A stretch of 31,814 nucleotides of DNA, taken from the UHGV virus genome UHGV-0219172, one strand, 5' to 3'. A program made the translations under genes and the position numbers. Below are positions 3,976 to 24,683 of the stretch, piece after piece. Position 1 is the first letter of the stretch. Every line of letters starts with the position of its first letter. The DNA is from a virus. The notes beneath the pieces were generated by a model. That model was not told the origin of the DNA, searched no databases, and worked only from the letters and a program-made list of their open reading frames with translations.

Positions 3976-4199
3976 TGCCGGACAACGTAGATTTTATTCA
4001 GGAACAACAGGCTGAATTACTGGAGCGCCAGATTAACGCGGCAAGGGTAAAACATTGCGGTGTTTCTTCGCTGGTTTGCGAAGAGTGTGATGCGCCAATA
4101 CCTGCTGCCCGTCGTGCGGCTTATCCGTCAGCCACGCGTTGTGTTTCCTGTCAGTCAGTCTTTGAAGCAAAAAACAAACATTACCGGAGAACGGCATGA
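3975..4199 (+). CDS. TraR/DksA-type C4 zinc-finger protein (P2 orf82-like)
   Basis: 74-aa ORF with CEEC-x17-CVSC, a four-cysteine zinc finger of the DksA/TraR type. Confidence 0.65.
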   Translation: MPDNVDFIQEQQAELLERQINAARVKHCGVSSLVCEECDAPIPAARRAAYPSATRCVSCQSVFEAKNKHYRRTA

Positions 4200-4471
4200 G
4201 TATTCGTATTGAAATTGGCGAACGTTATGTCGTTACCAGTGACAGCTTTCAGTTTATTCTCCACGAGAAAAAGAGAGCGGAAAGCGGTAAAAACGCCGGT
4301 CAGGAATGGCTGTCGGTGGTTGGTTATTACCCGAAATTAAGCCAGCTCGTTTCCGGCCTGATGCATCACGATATTCTGACCGGAAGCGCAAAGTCTTTTG
4401 CTGATTTAAACGCGCAGGTTGAGCAACTCAGCAAGCGTTGTTCAGAGGCTTTTGGCTCATATGGCCGTTAA
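4196..4471 (+). CDS. early operon small protein (P2 orf83-like)
   Basis: 91-aa ORF, overlapping-start coupling with its neighbours. Confidence 0.55.
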   Translation: MSIRIEIGERYVVTSDSFQFILHEKKRAESGKNAGQEWLSVVGYYPKLSQLVSGLMHHDILTGSAKSFADLNAQVEQLSKRCSEAFGSYGR

Positions 4472-6632
4472 AGCCTCCGGGCGTTTTGTCCCTCCGCCAG
4501 CATTTGCCGCAGGCACCGGTAAGGCGTTTACCGGTGCTTATGCATGGAACGCGCCACGCGAGGCCGTCGGGCGCGAAAGACCCCTTACACGTGACGAGAT
4601 GCGTCAGGTGCAAGGTGTTTTATCCACGATTAACCGCCTGCCTTACTTTTTGCGCTCGCTGTTTACTTCACGCTATGACTACATCCGGCGCAATAAAAGC
4701 CCGGTGCACGGGTTTTATTTCCTCACATCCACTTTTCAGCGTCGTTTATGGCCGCGCATTGAGCGTGTGAATCAGCGCCATGAAATGAACACCGACGCGT
4801 CGTTACTGTTTCTGGCAGAGCGTGACCACTATGCGCGCCTGCCGGGAATGAATGATAAGGAGCTAAAAAAGTTTGCTGCCCGTATCTCATCGCAGCTTTT
4901 CATGATGTATGAGGAACTCAGCGATGCCTGGGTGGATGCGCATGGCGAAAAAGAATCGCTGTTTACGGATGAGGCGCAGGCTCACCTCTATGGTCATGTT
5001 GCTGGCGCTGCACGTGCTTTCAATATTTCCCCGCTCTACTGGAAAAAATACCGTAAAGGGCAGATGACCACGAGGCAGGCATATTCTGCCATTGCCCGTC
5101 TGTTTAACGATGAGTGGTGGACTCATCAGCTTAAAGGCCAGCGTATGCGCTGGCATGAGGCGTTACTGATTGCTGTCGGGGAGGTCAATAAAGACCGTTC
5201 TCCTTATGCCAGTAAACATGCCATTCGTGATGTGCGTGCACGCCGCCAGGCAAATCTGGAATTTCTTAAATCGTGTGACCTTGAAAACAGGGAAACCGGC
5301 GAGCGCATCGACCTTATCAGTAAGGTGATGGGCAGTATTTCTAATCCTGAAATTCGCCGGATGGAGCTGATGAACACCATTGCCGGTATTGAGCGTTACG
5401 CCGCCGCAGAGGGTGATGTGGGGATGTTTATCACGCTGACCGCGCCGTCAAAGTATCACCCGACACGTCAGGTCAGAAAAGGCGAAAGTAAAACCGTTCA
5501 GCTTAATCACGGCTGGAACGATGAGGCATTTAATCCAAAGGATGCGCAGCGTTATCTCTGCCGCATCTGGAGCCTGATGCGCACGGCATTCAAGGATAAT
5601 GATTTACAGGTCTACGGTTTGCGTGTCGTCGAGCCACACCACGACGGAACGCCGCACTGGCATATGATGCTTTTTTGTAATCCACGCCAGCGTAACCAGA
5701 TTATCGAAATCATGCGTCGCTACGCGCTCAAAGAGGATGGAGACGAAAGAGGAGCTGCGCGAAACCGTTTTCAGGCAAAACACCTTAACCGGGGCGGTGC
5801 TGCGGGATATATCGCGAAATACATTTCAAAAAACATCGACGGCTATGCACTGGATGGTCAGCTCGATAACGATACCGGCAGGCCGCTGAAAGACACAGCG
5901 GCGGCTGTTACCGCATGGGCGTCAACGTGGCGCATCCCGCAATTTAAAACGGTTGGCCTGCCGACAATGGGGGCTTACCGTGAACTACGCAAATTGCCTC
6001 GCGGCGTCAGCATTGCTGATGAGTTTGACGAACGCGTCGAGGTTGCACGCGCCGCCGCAGACAGTGGTGATTTTGCGTTGTATATCAGCGCGCAGGGCGG
6101 GGCAAATGTCCCGCGCGATTGTCAGACTGTCAGGGTCGCCCGTAGTCCGTCGGATGAAGTTAACGAGTACGAGGAAGAAGTCGAGAGAGTGGTCGGCATT
6201 TACGCGCCGCATCTCGGCGCGCGTCATATTCATATCACCAGAACGACGGACTGGCGCATTGTGCCGAAAGTGCCGGTCGTTGAGCCTTTGACTTTAAAAA
6301 GCGGCATCGCCGCGCCTCGGAGTCCTGTCAATAACTGTGGAAAGTTCACCGGCGGTGACGTTCCGGTTATGCACCCTACACCGTCTGAGCATGCCGCAGC
6401 GGTGTTAAATCTGGTTGATAGTGGTGTTATCGGATGGGATGACCCGGAAGTTGTGACGGTGCTCAGGAGTGCATTAAAACATGGTGCACCGAGACCGAAT
6501 TGGCAACAAAGAAACTGCGAACCATTAAAACCGTACCAGATAGCGCCATCAGGGCGGATGAAAAAGGCTGAACGTTCGCAGATTCCACGCATCCATTTCG
6601 AGCTGGCACTAATTGGTAAAACCTATCAATAG
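4461..6632 (+). CDS. A: replication initiation protein A (rolling-circle nickase)
   Basis: Large ORF; the translation contains GYIAKYISKNIDGY, the paired active-site tyrosine motif of P2 A-type initiators. Start is ambiguous: in-frame ATGs at 4419 and 4461, both overlapping the end of the upstream gene. Confidence 0.85.
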   Translation: MAVKASGRFVPPPAFAAGTGKAFTGAYAWNAPREAVGRERPLTRDEMRQVQGVLSTINRLPYFLRSLFTSRYDYIRRNKSPVHGFYFLTSTFQRRLWPRIERVNQRHEMNTDASLLFLAERDHYARLPGMNDKELKKFAARISSQLFMMYEELSDAWVDAHGEKESLFTDEAQAHLYGHVAGAARAFNISPLYWKKYRKGQMTTRQAYSAIARLFNDEWWTHQLKGQRMRWHEALLIAVGEVNKDRSPYASKHAIRDVRARRQANLEFLKSCDLENRETGERIDLISKVMGSISNPEIRRMELMNTIAGIERYAAAEGDVGMFITLTAPSKYHPTRQVRKGESKTVQLNHGWNDEAFNPKDAQRYLCRIWSLMRTAFKDNDLQVYGLRVVEPHHDGTPHWHMMLFCNPRQRNQIIEIMRRYALKEDGDERGAARNRFQAKHLNRGGAAGYIAKYISKNIDGYALDGQLDNDTGRPLKDTAAAVTAWASTWRIPQFKTVGLPTMGAYRELRKLPRGVSIADEFDERVEVARAAADSGDFALYISAQGGANVPRDCQTVRVARSPSDEVNEYEEEVERVVGIYAPHLGARHIHITRTTDWRIVPKVPVVEPLTLKSGIAAPRSPVNNCGKFTGGDVPVMHPTPSEHAAAVLNLVDSGVIGWDDPEVVTVLRSALKHGAPRPNWQQRNCEPLKPYQIAPSGRMKKAERSQIPRIHFELALIGKTYQ

Positions 6633-6735
6633 TGATTTAATGAAATTTCGGAGTCATAAATATTGTGTATTTAACTAGATGATTGCAATATAAGTGCTTA
6701 TTATTTATGCGATTATAGCCATAACGGAGCTGAGT

Positions 6736-7665
6736 ATGAGTGTTGCAAGGCATCATCATTTTTTATCCCAATGTTATTTGAAAGGGTTTACAAGTAATGG
6801 GGGGAAAAAATCAAAATTAACTGTAATAGATTTAAAGGAGCGCAAAACCTTTGAGAGTAATACTCGCAATGTCGGGGGGGTTAGAGATTTCAACCGATTA
6901 GAATTGGATGGAGTTGACCCAAACTATCTCGAGAGTTCTCTTGCAGAGTTTGAAGGCAGTGTAGCTACTCATTTAAGAAAACTTGAGGAGGGGGGCGAGT
7001 TTTCAGGCGAAACCAAAGATGTTATTCTGGAGTTTATTTCCTTATTGGCAATACGTACGCCTGCTCAGCGAGAACATTTATCATCTCCATTGAAACAAAT
7101 AGCAAAGTTTATCATGAAATCCTCAGTTAGTTCGGCTGAGCGTTGGGACGATTGCAAATTAGCTTATGAGAAAGAAATGGGTGAGTCTTTGCCATATGAT
7201 CTCGCTTACGAAAAAATTAAAAATTTTGTGGATGGGGATAATTTCGAAATCAATGTAATCAGAGAGTTCATGATAGATATGGAAATGAAATGTGTACCTG
7301 TTATCACCAAGTTGTTGCATCAACGCAACTGGTCACTTATGACCATATCTGATGGGCAAGGGTCATTTATAACTTCAGATAACCCAGTTTGCTTAATGTG
7401 GACTAATCCTGAATTAGCACGAGGCCCTTATTCCCCCGGGTTTGGTGTAAAAGACACTTTAGTTTTGTTCCCAGTATCAAAAAACCTTCTTTTGGCGGGC
7501 GAGTTTGATGGTCATGAGGGTGTATTCAGTTGTAATGAGGAGCAGGCTGCGGTCTTCAATACTTCAGTCATTCGGCATACCGCAGAAAGAATATTTTCAT
7601 CTAATGATAATTTCAAATTTTTAGACTCATCTAAAAAAATGAAGCAAGGCAAAAGCCTGGTTTGA
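6736..7665 (+). CDS. cargo gene at the A-cos (tin/old) position: DUF4238-like protein, candidate single-gene anti-phage defence
   Basis: ATG 6736 with GGAG SD (6726-6729). The track start at 6694 is GTG. N-terminus HHFLSQCYLKGF and internal ITSDNPV resemble recalled DUF4238 signatures. Visibly AT-rich relative to the flanking phage genes. Confidence 0.55.
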   Translation: MSVARHHHFLSQCYLKGFTSNGGKKSKLTVIDLKERKTFESNTRNVGGVRDFNRLELDGVDPNYLESSLAEFEGSVATHLRKLEEGGEFSGETKDVILEFISLLAIRTPAQREHLSSPLKQIAKFIMKSSVSSAERWDDCKLAYEKEMGESLPYDLAYEKIKNFVDGDNFEINVIREFMIDMEMKCVPVITKLLHQRNWSLMTISDGQGSFITSDNPVCLMWTNPELARGPYSPGFGVKDTLVLFPVSKNLLLAGEFDGHEGVFSCNEEQAAVFNTSVIRHTAERIFSSNDNFKFLDSSKKMKQGKSLV

Positions 7666-17453: not shown

Positions 17454-18197
17454 TTATCTGGTTAAATAAGTGAGCTCACTCTCTTTAGGTATTAGCTGAG
17501 TGTCTCCTCCCCATTCGTTCATGATGTTTTTTCTCGCATTCCAGTATTCTTGGTAAGTATCTTGATGAACAGTGTAGATACTTGCTAAAAGCCAGTGTTG
17601 ATACTTAAGAGTCGTGTATTGGTATTCTTCTATTATCGGTAAAATGAATAAGTTTTTTTGCTTTAGTGAGATTAAATATTCTTTTGTTTGTTTGGTGGTT
17701 CTGTCATTGTTTAAGATTCTTTCAATCTTAAATGAAAAGCCGTGCATGTTTATATTTCTTTGGAGGTGCATGAATGATGATATTGATGGGGCGATCATGT
17801 TTTGATGCGTCAGGATGTTTCTTAAATCCTCCATTAATTTTATTACTGGATTATTTCGGAATTCATGATTGATGAATGCCTCTGATTTGATTTTAATGTC
17901 GGCAATATTTAATGCTTTTGTTTTAAGTAGGTTGCGCGTTGAATCTCTAAATGATAATGCTGAAGATATATAATTGAAAAGGTGTCTTGATATGTTTAAA
18001 TGTTCTTTTTTAAATTTGTCTCTGTTAAATGAATGACGGGAAACAATGTCAGGGGAGTTGAATTTGCTTAATTCATGTTGGACAACTTCGTAATTGGCAA
18101 TATGCATATGTCCAAGTAAATTGGTGTCGGAGATTTTTAAATACTCTTGGTGGGCGATGGTGTCTTTTTGATTTTCCCAGATTTGATATTTATCCAT
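17454..18197 (-). CDS. cargo gene at the S-V (P2 orf30) position: 247-aa protein of unknown family with two RNxxxH motifs, candidate HEPN-like defence/abortive-infection protein
   Basis: Antisense to the late operon, with its own SD (AAGGAA upstream of the minus-strand ATG). Visibly AT-rich. Motifs LRNILTH (R126 to H131) and QRNINMH (R147 to H152) fit the HEPN Rx4-6H pattern. I recognise no family. Confidence 0.5.
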   Translation of the reverse strand: MDKYQIWENQKDTIAHQEYLKISDTNLLGHMHIANYEVVQHELSKFNSPDIVSRHSFNRDKFKKEHLNISRHLFNYISSALSFRDSTRNLLKTKALNIADIKIKSEAFINHEFRNNPVIKLMEDLRNILTHQNMIAPSISSFMHLQRNINMHGFSFKIERILNNDRTTKQTKEYLISLKQKNLFILPIIEEYQYTTLKYQHWLLASIYTVHQDTYQEYWNARKNIMNEWGGDTQLIPKESELTYLTR

Positions 18198-19264: not shown

Positions 19265-20173
19265 ATGCCGATTATCGACCTGAACCAGCTACCCGCACCG
19301 GATGTGGTCGAGGAGCTGGACTTTGAAATCATTCTCGCTGAACGCAAGGCGACACTGATTTCCCTTTACCCGGAAGACCAGCAGGAGGCGGTCGCCCGTA
19401 CCCTGACGCTGGAATCTGAGCCTCTCGTCAAACTGCTGGAGGAAAATGCTTATCGTGAGCTTATCTGGCGTCAGCGTGTGAATGAGGCTGCGCGGGCGGT
19501 GATGCTGGCCTGTGCCGCCGGTAATGACCTTGATGTGATTGGTGCCAATTACAACACCACGCGCCTGACTATCACCCCGGCAGATGATTCGACCATCCCG
19601 CCGACACCGGCAGTGATGGAGTCTGACACCGATTATCGTCTGCGTATTCAGCAGGCGTTTGAGGGCTTAAGCGTCGCCGGGTCGGTGGGAGCCTATCAGT
19701 ATCATGGTCGCAGTGCCGACGGGCGTGTCGCGGATATCTCTGTCACCAGTCCGTCTCCGGCCTGCGTCACTATCTCCGTGCTGTCTCGCGAAAATAACGG
19801 TGTCGCATCCGAAGACCTGCTGGCGGTGGTGCGCAACGCCCTGAATGGTGAGGACGTCAGGCCGGTGGCCGACCGCGTGACCGTGCAGTCTGCCGCCATC
19901 GTTGAATACCAGATAAACGCCACGCTTTACCTTTACCCTGGTCCCGAAAGCGAACCCATCCGCGCTGCTGCCGTGAAAAAACTGGAAGCGTACATCACGG
20001 CACAGCACCGGCTGGGGCGCGACATCCGTCTGTCTGCTATTTATGCCGCTTTGCATGTGGAAGGCGTGCAGCGTGTCGAGCTGGCTGCACCACTGGCCGA
20101 CATTGTGCTCAACAGTACGCAGGCGTCTTTCTGCACCGAATACCGCGTCGTGACCGGAGGCTCGGATGAGTGA
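19265..20173 (+). CDS. J: baseplate protein J
   Basis: 302-aa ORF in the conserved V-W-J-I order. Confidence 0.9.
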   Translation: MPIIDLNQLPAPDVVEELDFEIILAERKATLISLYPEDQQEAVARTLTLESEPLVKLLEENAYRELIWRQRVNEAARAVMLACAAGNDLDVIGANYNTTRLTITPADDSTIPPTPAVMESDTDYRLRIQQAFEGLSVAGSVGAYQYHGRSADGRVADISVTSPSPACVTISVLSRENNGVASEDLLAVVRNALNGEDVRPVADRVTVQSAAIVEYQINATLYLYPGPESEPIRAAAVKKLEAYITAQHRLGRDIRLSAIYAALHVEGVQRVELAAPLADIVLNSTQASFCTEYRVVTGGSDE

Positions 20174-20696
20174 TTCGCGCCTGCTGCCGACCGGCTCATC
20201 ACCGCTTGAAGTCGCCGCCGCAAAAGCCTGTGCGGAAATTGAAAAAACGCCGGTCAGTATTCGTGAACTGTGGAACCCGGACACCTGTCCGGCAAATCTG
20301 CTGCCGTGGCTGGCGTGGGCGTTTTCGGTCGACAGGTGGGATGAAAAGTGGCCGGAAGCGACAAAACGCGCCGTTATCCGCGATGCCTATTTCATCCACT
20401 GTCATAAGGGCACGATAGGTGCAATCCGGCGTGTGGTGGAGCCGCTGGGCTATCTCATCAACGTGACGGAGTGGTGGGAAACCAGTGACCCGCCGGGCAC
20501 CTTCCGGCTTGATATTGGTGTACTGGAAAGTGGCATCACAGAGGCAATGTATCAGGAAATGGAACGGCTGATTGCTGATGCCAAACCTGCAAGCCGTCAC
20601 CTTATTGGCCTGAACATTACCCGGGACATTCCCGGCTACCTGTTCGCCGGTGGTGTGGCTTACGACGGCGATGTAATTACGGTTTACCCCGGATAA
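20166..20696 (+). CDS. I: baseplate/tail protein I
   Basis: 176-aa ORF overlapping the J stop. Confidence 0.9.
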   Translation: MSDSRLLPTGSSPLEVAAAKACAEIEKTPVSIRELWNPDTCPANLLPWLAWAFSVDRWDEKWPEATKRAVIRDAYFIHCHKGTIGAIRRVVEPLGYLINVTEWWETSDPPGTFRLDIGVLESGITEAMYQEMERLIADAKPASRHLIGLNITRDIPGYLFAGGVAYDGDVITVYPG

Positions 20697-20706
20697 GTGA
20701 GGAATA

Positions 20707-22635
20707 ATGAGCACAAAATTCAGAACCGTTATCACCACTGCCGGTGCAGCAAAGCTGGCAGCGGCAACCGCGCCTGGAGGGCGGAAGGTCAACATTACCA
20801 CGATGGCCGTCGGGGATGGCGGTGGTAAATTGCCTGTCCCGGATGCCGGACAGACCGGGCTTATCCATGAAGTCTGGCGACATGCGCTGAACAAAATCAG
20901 CCAGGACAAACGAAACAGTAATTATATTATCGCAGAGCTGGTTATTCCGCCGGAGGTGGGCGGTTTCTGGATGCGTGAGCTTGGCCTGTACGATGATGCG
21001 GGAACATTAATTGCCGTGGCGAACATGGCCGAAAGTTATAAGCCAGCTCTTGCCGAAGGCTCAGGGCGTTCGCAGACCTGTCGCATGGTCATCATCGTCA
21101 GCAGTGTGGCCTCAGTGGCGCTGACCATTGACACCACAACGGTGATGGCGACGCAGGATTACGTTGATGACAAAATTGCAGAGCATGAACAGTCACGACG
21201 TCACCCGGACGCCTCGCTGACCGCAAAAGGTTTTACTCAGTTAAGCAGTGCGATCAACAGCACGTCTGAAACACTGGCCGCAACGCCGAAAGCGGTAAAG
21301 GCCGCGTATGATCTTGCTAACGGGAAATACACTGCGCAGGATGCCACCACAGCGCGAAAAGGCCTTGTCCAGCTCAGTAGCGCCACCAACAGCACGTCTG
21401 AAACGCTCGCCGCAACACCAAAAGCGGTAAAGGCAGCATATGACCTTGCTAACGGGAAATACACTGCACAGGACGCCACCACAGCGCGAAAAGGTCTTGT
21501 CCAGCTCAGTAGCGCCACCAACAGCGATTCTGAAACGCTTGCAGCAACGCCAAAGGCGGTTAAGACAGCGTATGACCTTGCTAACGGGAAATACACTGCG
21601 CAGGATGCCACCACGGCGCGAAAAGGCCTTGTCCAGCTCAGTAGCGCCACCAACAGTGATTCTGAAACGCTGGCCGCAACACCAAAAGCAGTGAAGTCTG
21701 CCTATGACAATGCTGAAAAACGTCTTCAGAAAGATCAGAACGGTGCGGATATTCCGGGAAAGGATACCTTCACGAAAAATATCGGTGCCTGTCGTGCTTA
21801 TAGCGGCGCTTTGAGCACTGAAGCCGGAAACTGGACAACCGCTCAGTTTATTGAATGGCTGGATTCCCGTGGTGCATTTAATCATCCGTACTGGATGTGC
21901 AAATGTTCATGGTCATACGGCAATAATAAAATTATTACCGATACTGGCTGTGGAACTATTCATCTTGCAGGTTGCGTTATTGAGGTTATGGGTAATAAAG
22001 GTGCCATGACCATCCGTGTAACAACACCAAGCACTTCCACCGGAGGCGGCACCACTAACGCTCAATTCACTTATATTAATCATGGTGATGCTTATGCTCC
22101 TGGCTGGCGACGAGACTACAACACGAAAAACCAGCAGCCTGCATTTGCTTTAGGGAAAACAGGAAGCACTGTCGGAAATGATAAAGCTGTTGGCTGGAAC
22201 TGGAATAGCGGGGTCTATCAAGCAAATATTGGTGGCGCATCGACATTAATCCTCCATTTCAATATGAGCGAGGGGAGTTGCCCTGCCGTACAGTTCCGTG
22301 TGAATTATAAGAACGGCGGTATTTATTATCGTTCAGCGCGTGATGGTTATGGATTTGAGGCTGACTGGTCAGAGTTTTACACCACAACCCGCAAACCCTC
22401 TGCGGGAGATGTTGGTGCATATACCAAAGATGAATCGGATTCTCGCTATGTACGAGATATTCGCCTGGGCACACGTGTTGTTCAGACTATGCAAAAAGGT
22501 GTGATGTATGAGAAAGCAGGGCACGTAATTACCGGGCTTGGTATTGTCGGTGAAGTCGATGGTGATGACCCCGCAGTATTCAGACCAATACAAAAATACA
22601 TCAATGGAACATGGTATAACGTCGCACAGGTGTAA
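20707..22635 (+). CDS. H: tail fiber protein H with internal 44-aa tandem repeats and a lower-GC C-terminal domain
   Basis: 642-aa ORF after I. N-terminus conserved P2-like; the C-terminal third is visibly more AT-rich. Confidence 0.85.
   Translation: MSTKFRTVITTAGAAKLAAATAPGGRKVNITTMAVGDGGGKLPVPDAGQTGLIHEVWRHALNKISQDKRNSNYIIAELVIPPEVGGFWMRELGLYDDAGTLIAVANMAESYKPALAEGSGRSQTCRMVIIVSSVASVALTIDTTTVMATQDYVDDKIAEHEQSRRHPDASLTAKGFTQLSSAINSTSETLAATPKAVKAAYDLANGKYTAQDATTARKGLVQLSSATNSTSETLAATPKAVKAAYDLANGKYTAQDATTARKGLVQLSSATNSDSETLAATPKAVKTAYDLANGKYTAQDATTARKGLVQLSSATNSDSETLAATPKAVKSAYDNAEKRLQKDQNGADIPGKDTFTKNIGACRAYSGALSTEAGNWTTAQFIEWLDSRGAFNHPYWMCKCSWSYGNNKIITDTGCGTIHLAGCVIEVMGNKGAMTIRVTTPSTSTGGGTTNAQFTYINHGDAYAPGWRRDYNTKNQQPAFALGKTGSTVGNDKAVGWNWNSGVYQANIGGASTLILHFNMSEGSCPAVQFRVNYKNGGIYYRSARDGYGFEADWSEFYTTTRKPSAGDVGAYTKDESDSRYVRDIRLGTRVVQTMQKGVMYEKAGHVITGLGIVGEVDGDDPAVFRPIQKYINGTWYNVAQV
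21229..21709 (+). repeat. in-frame 132-bp tandem repeat, about 3.6 copies, inside tail fiber gene H
   Basis: Units begin at 21229, 21361, 21493 and 21625, each encoding G(L/F)(V/T)QLSSA(T/I)NS(T/D)SETLAATPKAVK(A/T/S)AYDLANGKYTAQDATTARK. Confidence 0.9.
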
Positions 22636-22638
22636 TTT

Positions 22639-23166
22639 ATGCAGCATTTAAAAAATATTATTGCGGGTAATCCAAAAACTGTTGCCCAATATCAACTGAC
22701 AAAAAATTTTGATGTTATCTGGTTATGGTCCGAAGAGGGAAAAAACTGGTATGAGGAAGTAAGTAATTTTCAGGAGGACACGATAAAGATTGTTTACGAC
22801 GAGAATAATATAATTGTCGGCATCACCAGAGATGCTTCAACGCTTAACCCTGAAGGTTTTAGCGTTGTCGAGGTTCCTGATATTACCGCCAACCGACGTG
22901 CTGATGACTCAGGTAAATGGATGTTTAAGGATGGTGCCGTGATTAAGCGGATTTATACGGCAGACGAACAGCAACAACAGGCCGAATCACAAAAGGCCGC
23001 GTTACTTTCCGAAGCGGAAAGCGTTATCCAGCCGCTGGAACGCACCGTCAGGCTGAATATGGCGACGGATGAGGAGCGCGCACGACTGGAGTCATGGGAA
23101 CGCTACAGCGTTCTGGTCAGCCGTGTGGATCCTGCAAATCCTGAATGGCCGGAAATACCGCAATAA
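22639..23166 (+). CDS. G: tail fiber assembly chaperone
   Basis: 175-aa ORF immediately after H, with lower GC like the H C-terminus. Confidence 0.8.
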
Positions 23167-23456: not shown

Positions 23457-24683
23457 ATGTTACAGTTCAGCTTTGTATCAAATGACGTTGTTATGACTTA
23501 CGACGGTGACAGCGGAGAACAAATAATTTGGGTTTGGGAGAGTTTAAATAAATTTCAAACAGTATGCATTTCACGAATTTTTAACTTTCAACTCCAGGAC
23601 TTGAGAAACCCACCGTCAACCGTTCAGGATTTTAATGATTACGAATATTCCTTTAATTTTGGCACGCTTAATAATGAATACATAACAGTTCCGGGACGGA
23701 TTCTAAGCATTAATCGAGATGTCCTTATACATAAGTCCATCAAGCTTGAAAGGAAAGTATTTGCGTCAGAACGCAACGTCTCCATTTTTGGTCGGCTTTC
23801 AAAACTACTCGATCACACTAATCCCATCATCATCGGAGGAGATAAGCCGGAAGCTATACCAAAAAGCGTATTCCAGGAGTTGCAAAGTAAATTCCACAAC
23901 ACAGGGGAACTGGATCGCTATGCTAATGCAAGGGTTCACGCTATTCTCGCAGGTTATCTTGATGGTATGAAAGATGCTCGCGAACGGTATGAACATTACC
24001 TAAACAGAAAAACAGTGATCAGAAAAACCGACAAACTGGATTTAGAAGTTTTAAATAAGCTCGAAATTGAGAAATATACACTCATAAGAGACATTATCCA
24101 GGATGCGTTGAATAACAAAACTAACTTGTCTGAAGATGACTGGCAGAGCCTGATGATACCCTTCATCACATTACTTTTTCCAAAATATATCAAGGTCCTC
24201 GAGAAGGTTAAAATTTTCGACTATTACTCTAATCCTTCGGCTAAAACAAATCGGTTTATAGACATTGCACTGGTGGATGCAAACGGCAACCTTGATATCA
24301 TCGAAGTCAAAAAGCCGTTTGATGATAAGATCCTTCGCAAGACGCCCTATCGCGATAACTATATTCCTACATCAGAACTTAGCGGCGGTATTATGCAGGC
24401 TGAAAAGTATATTTTTCATTTATCTAAATGGGGTGTTAAGGGTGAAAAAGAGCTTACGAATGCCTACAAGAATTCTCTGCCAGCGGGAATGTGTATTCGT
24501 ATATCTAACCCAAAAGCCATCATCATTGTCGGACGCGATCAGATAGCGAACGGTAACATGACCGACGGTCAGTTGCTTGATTTTGAGATAATCAAACGTA
24601 AGTACGCCAACATGATAGACATATTGACGTACGACGACCTGTTGCGTCGACTTAATAATACGATTGAAGCATTGAAAGGTTGA
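23457..24683 (+). CDS. cargo gene at the G-FI (Z/fun) position: 408-aa protein with a C-terminal PD-(D/E)xK nuclease-like core, possibly Shedu (DUF4263)-like; candidate anti-phage defence
   Basis: ATG 23457 with GAGG SD. Visibly AT-rich, flanked by about 290 bp of non-coding DNA on each side. C-terminal region FIDIALVDANGNLDIIEVKKP ... QAEKY gives D269/D280, E283-x-K285 and Q314...Y318, a restriction-endonuclease-fold pattern. Confidence 0.5.
   Translation: MLQFSFVSNDVVMTYDGDSGEQIIWVWESLNKFQTVCISRIFNFQLQDLRNPPSTVQDFNDYEYSFNFGTLNNEYITVPGRILSINRDVLIHKSIKLERKVFASERNVSIFGRLSKLLDHTNPIIIGGDKPEAIPKSVFQELQSKFHNTGELDRYANARVHAILAGYLDGMKDARERYEHYLNRKTVIRKTDKLDLEVLNKLEIEKYTLIRDIIQDALNNKTNLSEDDWQSLMIPFITLLFPKYIKVLEKVKIFDYYSNPSAKTNRFIDIALVDANGNLDIIEVKKPFDDKILRKTPYRDNYIPTSELSGGIMQAEKYIFHLSKWGVKGEKELTNAYKNSLPAGMCIRISNPKAIIIVGRDQIANGNMTDGQLLDFEIIKRKYANMIDILTYDDLLRRLNNTIEALKG

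Follow-up and report, generated by a model that had tools for sequence, protein, structure and literature searches.

Introduction

The closest described counterpart of the gene analyzed here is gpH of phage P2 (NC_001895, 669 aa), which occupies the H position in the gene order V-W-J-I-H-G and carries, behind its N-terminal domain, a 44-aa unit from aa 174. The same repeat family, PF03406 ('Pf2'), forms arrays of variable length in lambda Stf, in the Stf-type fibres of E. coli prophages and in the fibres of P1-type phage-plasmids (PMC3368898). Stf- and P1-type fibres have other N-terminal domains and often far longer arrays (up to 11–12 units), in which the prevailing spacings are 44 and 56 aa and the two versions alternate. 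Tail fibre protein S (gp49) of Mu (PDB 5yvq, 8ju3, 9ki1) and S/S' of P1 have one Pf2 unit followed by an exit segment (...AATAKAVKIAMDNANARLAKDRNGADIPNK...). In P1, the distal module that resembles that of the gene analyzed here is part of a segment annotated as invertible, and Mu switches its tail-fibre modules as P1 does (PMC11915804).

Length variation by whole repeats is also on record. The collagen-like fibres EPclA-D of EHEC, some architectures of which contain a Pf2 unit, differ in length by whole repeat periods between prophage copies, their variable parts being Gly-X-Y triplets and coiled-coil heptads (PMC3368898). Bacterial surface proteins contain in-frame intragenic VNTRs whose number varies between strains while the terminal domains are kept (PMC2639597). 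Our literature searches turned up no account of unit-number polymorphism in P2 H, and what they returned on Pf2 and fibre mosaicism was of a general kind; the Sf14 paper gives no detail on the Pf2 unit. PF03406 was listed without a solved structure in 2021 (PMC8078820), and the Mu cryo-EM study modelled the N-terminus alone of gp49 (PMC11915804).

Here we analyzed the repeat array in the tail fibre gene of a P2-like prophage, in a 31,814-nt stretch of viral DNA (UHGV-0219172; hereafter, the window). Like P2 gpH, the window's H has the 44-aa unit from aa 174, and the two genes share 94.8% DNA identity across their first 860 nt. P2 gpH has 2 motifs (one full unit and a partial one) against 4 in the window, and its exit and C-terminal module read KTVMD followed by ETNKKAPLNSPALTG..., whereas those of the window are of the Mu S/P1 S' type. 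The array of H is 44-aa only, in contrast to the Stf- and P1-type arrays, with which its unit shares 84–93% aa identity. Its variable part is a 44-aa Pf2 unit, unlike the triplets and heptads of EPclA-D, and it differs from the bacterial surface VNTRs in belonging to a prophage virion protein whose units are diverged at synonymous sites and positionally conserved.

Gene H and its repeat array

A sequence-only reading of the window had named the gene tail fibre gene H, and its identity was borne out by the P2 gpH N-terminal domain, four PF03406 matches, a gp37_C match and the gene neighbours (Table 1). H lies between the Tail_P2_I and Caudo_TAP genes, so that J, I, H and G follow one another as in the V-W-J-I-H-G order of the P2 record; downstream of H come G, a Shedu gene and a sheath gene. 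A 408-aa SduA_C (Shedu) cargo gene was also seen downstream of G, in the same place as in the window, on one related metagenome scaffold (L001). Copies 100% identical to the 642-aa H protein (P0018) were found on 69 contigs. By homology to P2-type gpH, the H protein would form a trimeric fibre on the baseplate that binds the host receptor, and its 308-aa C-terminal module is presumed to be the receptor-binding part.

Table 1. Coordinates of gene H, its parts and its neighbours in the window
Feature	Position	Strand	Basis or remark
Baseplate_J	19265-20173		Pfam
Tail_P2_I	20166-20696		Pfam
Tail fibre gene H, 642 aa, P2-like prophage	20707-22635	+	ORF; PF12571, PF03406 x4, PF12604
H N-terminal baseplate-attachment ('tail-collar') domain, aa 1-151	20707-21159	+	PF12571 Phage_tail_fib, E 2.4e-58
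Repeat unit 1, aa 174-217, KGFTQLSSAINSTSETLAATPKAVKAAYDLANGKYTAQDATTAR	21226-21357	+	PF03406 best stretch, residues 170-210
Repeat unit 2, aa 218-261	21358-21489	+	DNA identity 85% to unit 1, 89% to unit 3
Repeat unit 3, aa 262-305	21490-21621	+	Codon-register unit comparison
Partial unit 4, aa 306-334, first 29/44 residues, ending ...AATPKAVKSAYD	21622-21708	+	87 bp
Exit segment NAEKRLQKDQNGADIPGKDTFTKNIGACRA	21709-21798	+	Homologous to Mu tail-fibre protein S, ~residues 145-172
H C-terminal module, 308 aa, distal fibre	21709-22632	+	gp37_C match PF12604 at aa 483-577; P1 S'-like
Tail fibre assembly gene G	22639-23166	+	PF02413 Caudo_TAP, E 2e-35; P2 G position
Antisense ORF, 214 aa	21241-21885	-	ORF list; by-product of periodic array (putative)
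Antisense ORF, 138 aa	21237-21653	-	ORF list; by-product of periodic array (putative)

In codon register, the array consists of three full 132-bp units and a partial one (483 nt, 3.66 units), all in frame, between the conserved baseplate-attachment domain and the Mu S/P1 S'-like C-terminal module; a partial terminal unit closes every array examined. Tandem Repeats Finder reported a single, indel-free array at 21255-21708, with a score of 705 for 3.4 copies of period 132 at 89% matches. Self-identity was 0.87 at offset 132 and 0.85 at offset 264, as opposed to a mean of 0.26 (sd 0.04) at the remaining offsets, indicating a periodicity far beyond chance. The earlier reading, which placed about 3.6 in-frame copies of a 44-aa, 132-bp unit at 21229-21709, was accurate to within 3 nt. 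Its description of the copies as near-identical fits the protein, in which full units agree at 39–42 of the 44 residues; the DNA, at 83–89% identity, does not bear it out.

PF03406 (Phage_fiber_2, phage tail fibre repeat) matched each unit of H, in four stretches (266.4 bits, cut-off 22; E 5.4e-81), the best of which covers profile positions 1-41 of 42. The family comprises tandem units of ~40–45 residues in tail-fibre proteins, and the period of H is exactly 44 aa. The array is a member of an already catalogued repeat family and, as such, an ordinary and known feature. A PDB sequence search returned only Mu fibre protein S (5yvq, 8ju3), with a match spanning one unit only, and an AF2 monomer model of aa 150-400 from a 36-row alignment had a mean pLDDT of 37.5 and a pTM of 0.21, too low for the model to be of use.

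Unit number varies among related prophages

The sequence-only reading had proposed that the repeats can expand or contract by replication slippage or recombination, a proposal that an invariant copy number among relatives would have contradicted. H alleles with identical flanks encode proteins of 554, 598, 642, 686, 730 and 774 aa, that is, 2–7 motifs in 44-aa steps; the best 120 relatives had proteins of 598, 642, 686, 730 and 774 aa. In four of these proteins (P0113, P0018, P0004 and P0003), the N-terminal 173 aa and the C-terminal 308 aa are 100% identical. Related prophages thus have 2, 3, 4, 5, 6 or 7 motifs within identical or near-identical flanks, and the alleles differ by whole units only, as in VNTRs. 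The expectation of variable repeat number was therefore right, and invariance is refuted.

At the DNA level, a model with a single indel left no mismatch along the whole gene for L001 and L009 (3 vs 4 motifs), L005 and L006 (2 vs 4), or L067/L069 and L004 (4 vs 7), and one mismatch for L088-L090 and L004 (5 vs 7). Among complete O145 genomes, H measures 1665 nt in RM9872 (2 motifs) and 1929 nt in RM12581 (4 motifs), a difference of exactly 264 bp, and the flanks are identical at 4000/4000 nt upstream and 3999/4000 nt downstream (7,999/8,000). The junction unit of this pair joins parts of units 2 and 4 in a chimera whose crossover falls within 11 bp of identical sequence. Similarly, unit 1 of L001 is chimeric between window units 1 and 2, and here the crossover maps to an 18-bp identical block; the array offers longer stretches of identity, of up to 30 bp at offset 132 and 41 bp at offset 264. 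Expansions left duplicated units: two adjacent units are identical in L002 and three units in L004, and a two-unit (264-bp) block is duplicated in L003. Alleles in 44-aa steps, together with chimeric and duplicated units, indicate that whole units are gained and lost through unequal recombination or replication slippage, in support of the mechanism proposed earlier; the two mapped junctions, in 11- and 18-bp blocks, fit either route and cannot separate them.

We searched a set of 5,426 E. coli genomes, and the unit-number figures cover the matches listed. Among these matches, complete genomes have this allele in only the 2-, 4- and 5-motif states, and the 1929-nt form of H is common to 21 complete genomes. 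The 5-motif state is that assembled for 2015C-4136CT1. Alleles with 3 motifs and other C-terminal ends occur in complete genomes (1548-nt spans) and in phage fiAA91-ss. For the 598-, 730- and 774-aa variants, the sources are short-read assemblies (metagenome or draft), in which repeats can be mis-assembled. Four motifs, the modal number, were present in 38 of 54 sampled type-B arrays (~70%), suggesting that unit-number changes are infrequent. In one genome record from each of 27 species, 25 of them Enterobacteriaceae by title, the first motif lies at aa 190/191, motifs number 1–4, and all motif spacings are 44 aa except one of 88. The isolated phages P2, fiAA91-ss and vB_EcoM-12474 have 2, 3 and 4 motifs, respectively, and Wphi has 2.

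The array is old and its units are positionally conserved

Pairs of full units differ at 20, 23 and 14 bases, of which 15, 15 and 11, respectively, are at third codon positions. Between units, dN/dS was 0.02–0.14 and dS 0.39–0.75, with units 1 vs 4 saturated; between alleles, dS in the flanks was 0.02–0.11. Across 29 distinct arrays, same-position units scored 0.93–0.95 (diagonal) vs 0.76–0.90 off the diagonal, and the best match of each unit was the same-position unit of other phages. Mostly synonymous differences between units and positional orthology across phages indicate an old array that has been under selection, and the divergence of the copies at the DNA level speaks for an old array with sporadic changes rather than a hypermutable tract. 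The codon-level pattern points to a four-motif array that purifying selection maintains at the level of the protein.

C-terminal modules part within or after the exit segment

Sixteen C-module types were found downstream of one N-terminus and array; in a comparison of one representative per type (16), identity over the first 173 aa was 98% or higher. The types part ways after 'NGADIP' in the exit segment, BLAST matches in E. coli genomes stop at query positions 990-1058, and the 89% DNA identity of the window's distal module to the P1 Sv' segment starts at 21722. These breakpoints argue that C-terminal modules are swapped within or after the exit segment, and that the array end and exit segment are the joint. 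The arrangement differs from the invertible segments of Mu (G) and P1 (C): in the window, G comes directly after H, and no second inverted module was found between H and the sheath gene in the ORFs and Pfam matches. For each of six different C-module types, more than one unit number was observed.

Proposed mechanism

We consider it very likely that the repeats of H are 44-residue PF03406 shaft modules in an old, selected array, and that out-of-register pairing changes their number and hence, presumably, fibre length. The modules would form the proximal shaft of a trimeric P2-type fibre, from the end of the baseplate-attachment domain (aa 1-173) to the exchangeable distal module. As direct repeats of exactly 132 bp, the units would occasionally pair out of register, through replication slippage, template switching or unequal homologous recombination, and whole units would be deleted or duplicated without harm to the frame or to either end domain. 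The outcome would be a family of fibres alike in all but their motif number (1 to 7), whose length or reach may change stepwise while receptor specificity stays the same. The conserved array end and exit segment would double as a joint for swapped-in C-terminal modules. We infer the shaft role, the trimeric state and the length effect of the units from the known fibres of P2, Mu and lambda Stf and from rotary-shadowing EM, which suggests that a Pf2 region is a bead between stalks (PMC3368898); by this analogy, it is plausible that unit number alters fibre length.

The feature alone matters little, as it belongs to a curated Pfam family, and its exact protein is on dozens of database contigs; in-frame variation of repeat number is also the expected behaviour of fibre shafts. 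What is added here is a clean natural series of otherwise identical P2-type fibres with 2–7 motifs, some of them in complete O145-lineage genomes, which is suited to asking whether the length of the proximal shaft affects adsorption or host range. The variation also calls for caution in the annotation and assembly of tail-fibre genes and in the engineering of P2-based particles. The array and exit segment mark the natural splice point for distal-module swaps.

Alternative explanations

A tuned array is possible, though we think it rather unlikely. Unit number would then be an adaptively set spacer length, fitted to the distal module and to the thickness of the host surface layer (O-antigen/capsule), and each C-module type would have a preferred number. 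Divergence of the units at synonymous sites would be preserved for its effect of guarding the chosen length against recombination. In our sample, P2-type exits always went with 2 motifs (21/21 arrays), the 331-aa module mostly with 5 and the 438-aa module mostly with 4.

Somewhat more doubtful is that unit-number differences arose mainly by recombination between different fibre genes, those of co-resident P2-like, lambdoid Stf-type or P1-type prophages with the unit in common, rather than by mispairing inside a single gene. The H unit does recur in Stf-like and P1-type fibres, within the identity range given above and in long arrays, the number of matching places in E. coli genomes that have any reaches 15, with a median of 2, and C-terminal modules switch at the array and exit segment. 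For other C-module types, moreover, pairs unlike in unit number differ by 34–60 substitutions. However, the cleanest pairs differ by an indel alone (0 mismatches per 1.7–1.9 kb), the junction units are chimeras of the same allele's own units, and duplicated units match their neighbours rather than foreign units. Some between-phage differences may come from recombination of co-resident prophages rather than from slippage in situ.

Out-of-register pairing within the array, as we propose, differs from a programmed, contingency-type locus in which unit number changes at high frequency within a population and diversifies the fibre. We regard such a locus as very improbable. Whole units are gained and lost without any other substitution across ~1.8 kb, and the identical adjacent units of some alleles would favour further change; yet the units are diverged and positionally orthologous across phages, only 7 of 105 adjacent full-unit pairs reach at least 99% identity, and particular states prevail, as in the type-B and P2-type arrays and in the 1929-nt form noted above among the matches listed. 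We saw no dedicated enzyme or site, and since 132 bp is 44 codons, a multiple of 3, the frame is always kept and no on/off switching results. Divergence, positional orthology and frame together led us to reject a contingency or phase-variable locus.

Slightly less credible again is that short-read assemblers collapsed or expanded the 132-bp repeat of an array that is in truth invariant. The sequences L001, L002 and L003 are scaffolds from metagenomes, L004 comes from a draft genome, and de Bruijn assemblers perform poorly on arrays with identical adjacent units. Against this, the 1665-, 1929- and 2061-nt alleles are present in closed genomes (the last in NZ_CP027550), the 1665-nt form recurs in at least 6 separate complete assemblies with a chimeric unit of the kind that a real crossover would leave, 89 contigs encode P0017, the 686-aa protein of the 2061-nt allele, and the isolated phages themselves differ in motif number. 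Window units differ by 11–17%, which allows unique read placement. In view of the complete genomes and recurrent assemblies, we rejected an assembly artefact as the cause.

Least likely of all is that one long antisense ORF over the array is a real overlapping gene. The sequence-only reading had given spurious antisense ORFs as the single span 21237-21885; they exist, with start codons, but that span merges two separate ORFs, both of which end inside unit 1. Neither has a Pfam match, and units recoded synonymously with H's own codon usage stayed stop-free in the two frames in 30% and 35% of cases; on these grounds we rejected antisense genes. From the coordinates, third-position changes in H fall on first codon positions of the 214-aa ORF, indicating that this frame is not conserved, and the third codon positions of the 138-aa ORF coincide with those of H. 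Because the periodicity is in frame, an antisense frame that is open in one unit stays open through the whole array, and the two ORFs look like by-products of it.

Gene H carries a tandem repeat array

ORF 20707-22635 encodes the tail fibre protein H, as the sequence-only reading had proposed, and is of the P2 type: it matches PF12571 and PF03406 and lies in the P2 gene order J-I-H-G. Phage P2 has the same order, and its H shares 94.8% identity with the window H over the first 860 nt; the phage P1 Sv' segment shares 89% identity from 21722 on, 14 nt past the array. Public databases contain an identical 642-aa protein (P0018) on 69 contigs, and in one source a close relative goes by the name "phage tail fiber repeat family protein".

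Features of gene H, its repeat array and its neighbours
Feature	Position	Strand	Remarks
Repeat unit 1	21226-21357	+	frame of 642-aa ORF 20707-22635
Repeat unit 2	21358-21489	+	frame of 642-aa ORF 20707-22635
Repeat unit 3	21490-21621	+	frame of 642-aa ORF 20707-22635
Partial unit 4	21622-21708	+	first 29 of 44 residues, C-terminal end ...AATPKAVKSAYD
Antisense ORF, 214 aa	21241-21885	-	crosses array
Antisense ORF, 138 aa	21237-21653	-	crosses array
Out-of-frame ORF, 84 aa	21440-21694	+	crosses array
PF12571 tail-collar N-terminal domain	H residues 1-151		E 2e-58
PF03406 Phage_fiber_2, "phage tail fibre repeat"	four stretches in H		266 bits, cut-off 22
PF12604 gp37_C	H residues 483-577		Pfam match
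Baseplate_J	19265-20173		Pfam match, H neighbour
Tail_P2_I	20166-20696		Pfam match, H neighbour
Caudo_TAP assembly gene	22639-23166		Pfam match, H neighbour

The only strong array that Tandem Repeats Finder detected in the window lies at 21255-21708 (period 132, 3.4 copies, 89% matches, 0 indels, score 705), and an ungapped repeat search found three 226-nt copies at 132-nt spacing. Self-identity was 0.87 at offset 132 and 0.85 at offset 264, far above other offsets (mean 0.26, sd 0.04), which excludes chance as the source of the array. Mapped in the frame of H it comprises 3.66 units, in agreement with the roughly 3.6 copies initially read at 21229-21709, and its presence is confirmed. The copies had been described as near-identical, which holds for the protein (2-5 differences per 44 aa between full units) but not for the DNA (83-89% identity); third codon positions accounted for 15/20, 15/23 and 11/14 of the differing bases between full units.

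The two minus-strand ORFs that cross the array are by-products. Neither has a Pfam family, and when a unit was recoded with synonymous codons at H's own usage, the two antisense frames were stop-free 30% and 35% of the time. In-frame periodicity then carries an open antisense frame on through the array. The view that the repeats create long spurious antisense ORFs therefore stands, the stretch concerned holding two of them.

Unit number varies among relatives

H unit number varies among relatives. The best 120 protein relatives had lengths of 598, 642, 686, 730 and 774 aa, in 44-aa steps, and their motifs (full units plus the terminal partial unit) were spaced 44 aa throughout, except in six 642-aa proteins in which the search pattern missed one motif. 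In four database relatives, P0113 (598 aa), P0018 (642 aa), P0004 (686 aa) and P0003 (730 aa), the N-terminal 173 aa and C-terminal 308 aa were 100% identical. We fitted to pairs of alleles, from loci L001 onward on metagenome, draft-genome and IMG/VR contigs, a DNA model of one whole-unit indel and no other change. It left 0 mismatches across the whole gene for L001 versus L009 (3 vs 4 motifs), L005 versus L006 (2 vs 4) and L067/L069 versus L004 (4 vs 7), and 1 mismatch for L088-L090 versus L004 (5 vs 7).

Because several variants stem from short-read assemblies and are possible artefacts, complete genomes were examined. Among the matches listed, 21 complete E. coli genomes had a 1929-nt form and six, the O145 RM9872 group, a form exactly 264 nt shorter (1665 nt); one genome, 2015C-4136CT1, had a 2061-nt form. 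The flanks of H in RM9872 and RM12581, both complete O145 genomes, were identical at 4000/4000 nt upstream and 3999/4000 downstream. Alleles with another C-terminal tip spanned 1680 nt in most complete genomes and 1548 nt in four, again among the matches listed. Isolated phages P2 and Wphi have 2 motifs and fiAA91-ss has 3; in vB_EcoM-12474, H is 1929 nt long, as in the window, a length that implies 4.

At the 75 IMG/VR loci with complete H, of 80 sampled, we counted 2 (21 loci), 3 (8), 4 (38) or 5 (8) motifs, and more than one count was seen within each of six C-terminal module types. A one-genome-per-species scan yielded 27 records with a recognisable P2-type array of 1-4 motifs, motif 1 always at aa 190/191 and all spacings but one 44 aa. 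The proposal that the repeats can expand and contract is thus borne out by the 44-aa steps, the mismatch-free pairs and the length forms in complete genomes; across related prophages the count is not invariant, ranging over 2-7 motifs among alleles with identical or near-identical flanks.

Records titled Chryseobacterium sp. 18061 (L115) and Vagococcus sp. WN89Y (L120) contain a P2-type H with 74-77% identity to E. coli H. All other full-length matches were from Enterobacteriaceae or a relative, and contamination or mislabelling of these two is likely. Some H ORFs on IMG/VR contigs are far shorter than normal and end inside or just past the array (L015, 289 aa; L026, 265 aa; L056, 322 aa) or further downstream, in the C-terminal module (L023, 487 aa; L080, 519 aa). 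Frameshift or disruption of the fibre gene in decaying prophages may account for them, as may sequencing errors.

Gain and loss of units

Crossovers were mapped with synonymous differences between units as markers. Unit 1 of L001, a contraction, agrees with window unit 1 as far as column 29 and, beginning at column 48, with window unit 2, placing the crossover within an 18-bp identical block. Similarly, unit 2 of the contracted RM9872 array carries the markers of RM12581 unit 2 up to column 39 and, starting at column 51, those of RM12581 unit 4, placing the crossover within an 11-bp identical block, TCTGAAACGCT. Expansions comprised two identical adjacent units in L002, a repeated two-unit 264-bp block in L003, and three identical units plus a fourth with a one-base difference in L004. 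Out-of-register pairing of direct repeats yields changes of both classes. Both mapped junctions are shorter than the longest exact blocks available in the window array (30 bp at offset 132, 41 bp at offset 264). Short junctions in E. coli repeat deletion point to RecA-independent slippage or template switching, towards which we lean here, two events not being decisive.

The array is old. Pairwise comparison of the window units gave dN/dS of 0.02-0.14 and dS of 0.39-0.75 (saturated for units 1 vs 4); dS between alleles in the flanks was 0.02-0.11. Among 29 distinct four-motif arrays, identity was 0.93-0.95 for same-position units across phages and 0.76-0.90 for other positions. There was no strong concerted evolution among units, and only 7/105 adjacent full-unit pairs were ≥99% identical. 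A hypermutable tract is ruled out by these pairs and by the diverged, position-matched units; together with the distribution of counts, the latter indicate a stable architectural element with sporadic unit-number changes.

Exits, wider family and function

The first 173 aa are at least 98% identical in all sampled H proteins; next come the array and an exit segment of one of two types. Type A (KTVMD, then ETNKKAPLNSPALTG), as in P2, always had 2 motifs in the sample, and type B (KSAYD, then NAEKRLQKDQNGADIP), the form seen in Mu S and P1 S', had 2-7. At least three different continuations past "NGADIP" lead to 16 C-module types. Among the matches listed, BLAST matches in E. coli genomes ended at query 594, 860, 990-1058, 1411 and 1680, and some began at 1021. 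These breakpoints fit the mosaic evolution of tail fibres, which has long been known. The exit segment …NGADIPGKDTFTKNIGACRA (21709-21798) aligns with Mu S residues 145-172. In the S/S' fusion chain 8ju3 it aligns again, at residues 176-207, where the constant part of Mu S may join the variable part. A second inverted module was absent from the ORFs and domains of the window.

With one 44-aa unit as query, 1,665 of 1.84 billion representative proteins matched at E ≤ 0.001, the best 150 of them with 2-17 matched stretches per protein. Dominant spacings in this wider family were 44 and 56 aa, with up to 11-12 units in fibres of the P1-type phage-plasmid and Stf classes. The Pf2 family was first noticed in lambda Stf, its structure being described as unknown in 2012 (PMC3368898); in 2021 it was still classed as structurally unsolved (PMC8078820). 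Among solved structures, sequence similarity to H was confined to Mu fibre protein S (5yvq, 8ju3, 9ki1), whose match takes in one unit and the exit segment NAEKRLQKDQNGADIPGKDTFTKNIG. An AF2 monomer model of the array was unusable (pLDDT 37.5). From their position and homology, we take the units to be the proximal shaft of a trimeric fibre, in which each unit gained or lost would change fibre length while both ends are kept. In a collagen-like prophage fibre, rotary-shadowing EM suggested the Pf2 region as a bead between stalks (PMC3368898).

This fibre-length effect aside, the interpretation in the sequence-only reading is supported. The repeat family is catalogued, the gene is well known and databases contain identical sequences. 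Variation in number is the expected behaviour of such repeats; we found no published description of the unit-number series in P2-type H.

Cargo genes and other loci

A 408-aa Shedu defence protein (23457-24683, +; SduA, PADLOC PDLC04067, E 4e-218; Pfam SduA_C) is encoded between assembly gene G and the sheath gene, and L001 has an SduA_C gene of matching position and length 3' of G. This position is occupied by fun(Z) in P2 and, among close relatives, by a gene for an SMEK_N-domain protein in L004, L005, L006 and L088 and by genes for 175- and 197-aa proteins without assigned function in L002 and L087. Just 3' of replication gene A (4419-6632), at what we take to be the second site of variable cargo in P2-like phages (tin/old position), lies a gene for a 323-aa DUF4238 protein (6694-7665, +; PADLOC candidate defence model "DUF4238-Pers", E 2e-219). 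A 247-aa ORF (17454-18197, -) without Pfam or PADLOC matches is flanked by the tail-completion genes and by baseplate gene V, on the strand opposite theirs; the same place holds a 247-aa gene in L001 and one for a 261-aa hypothetical protein in O145 prophages.
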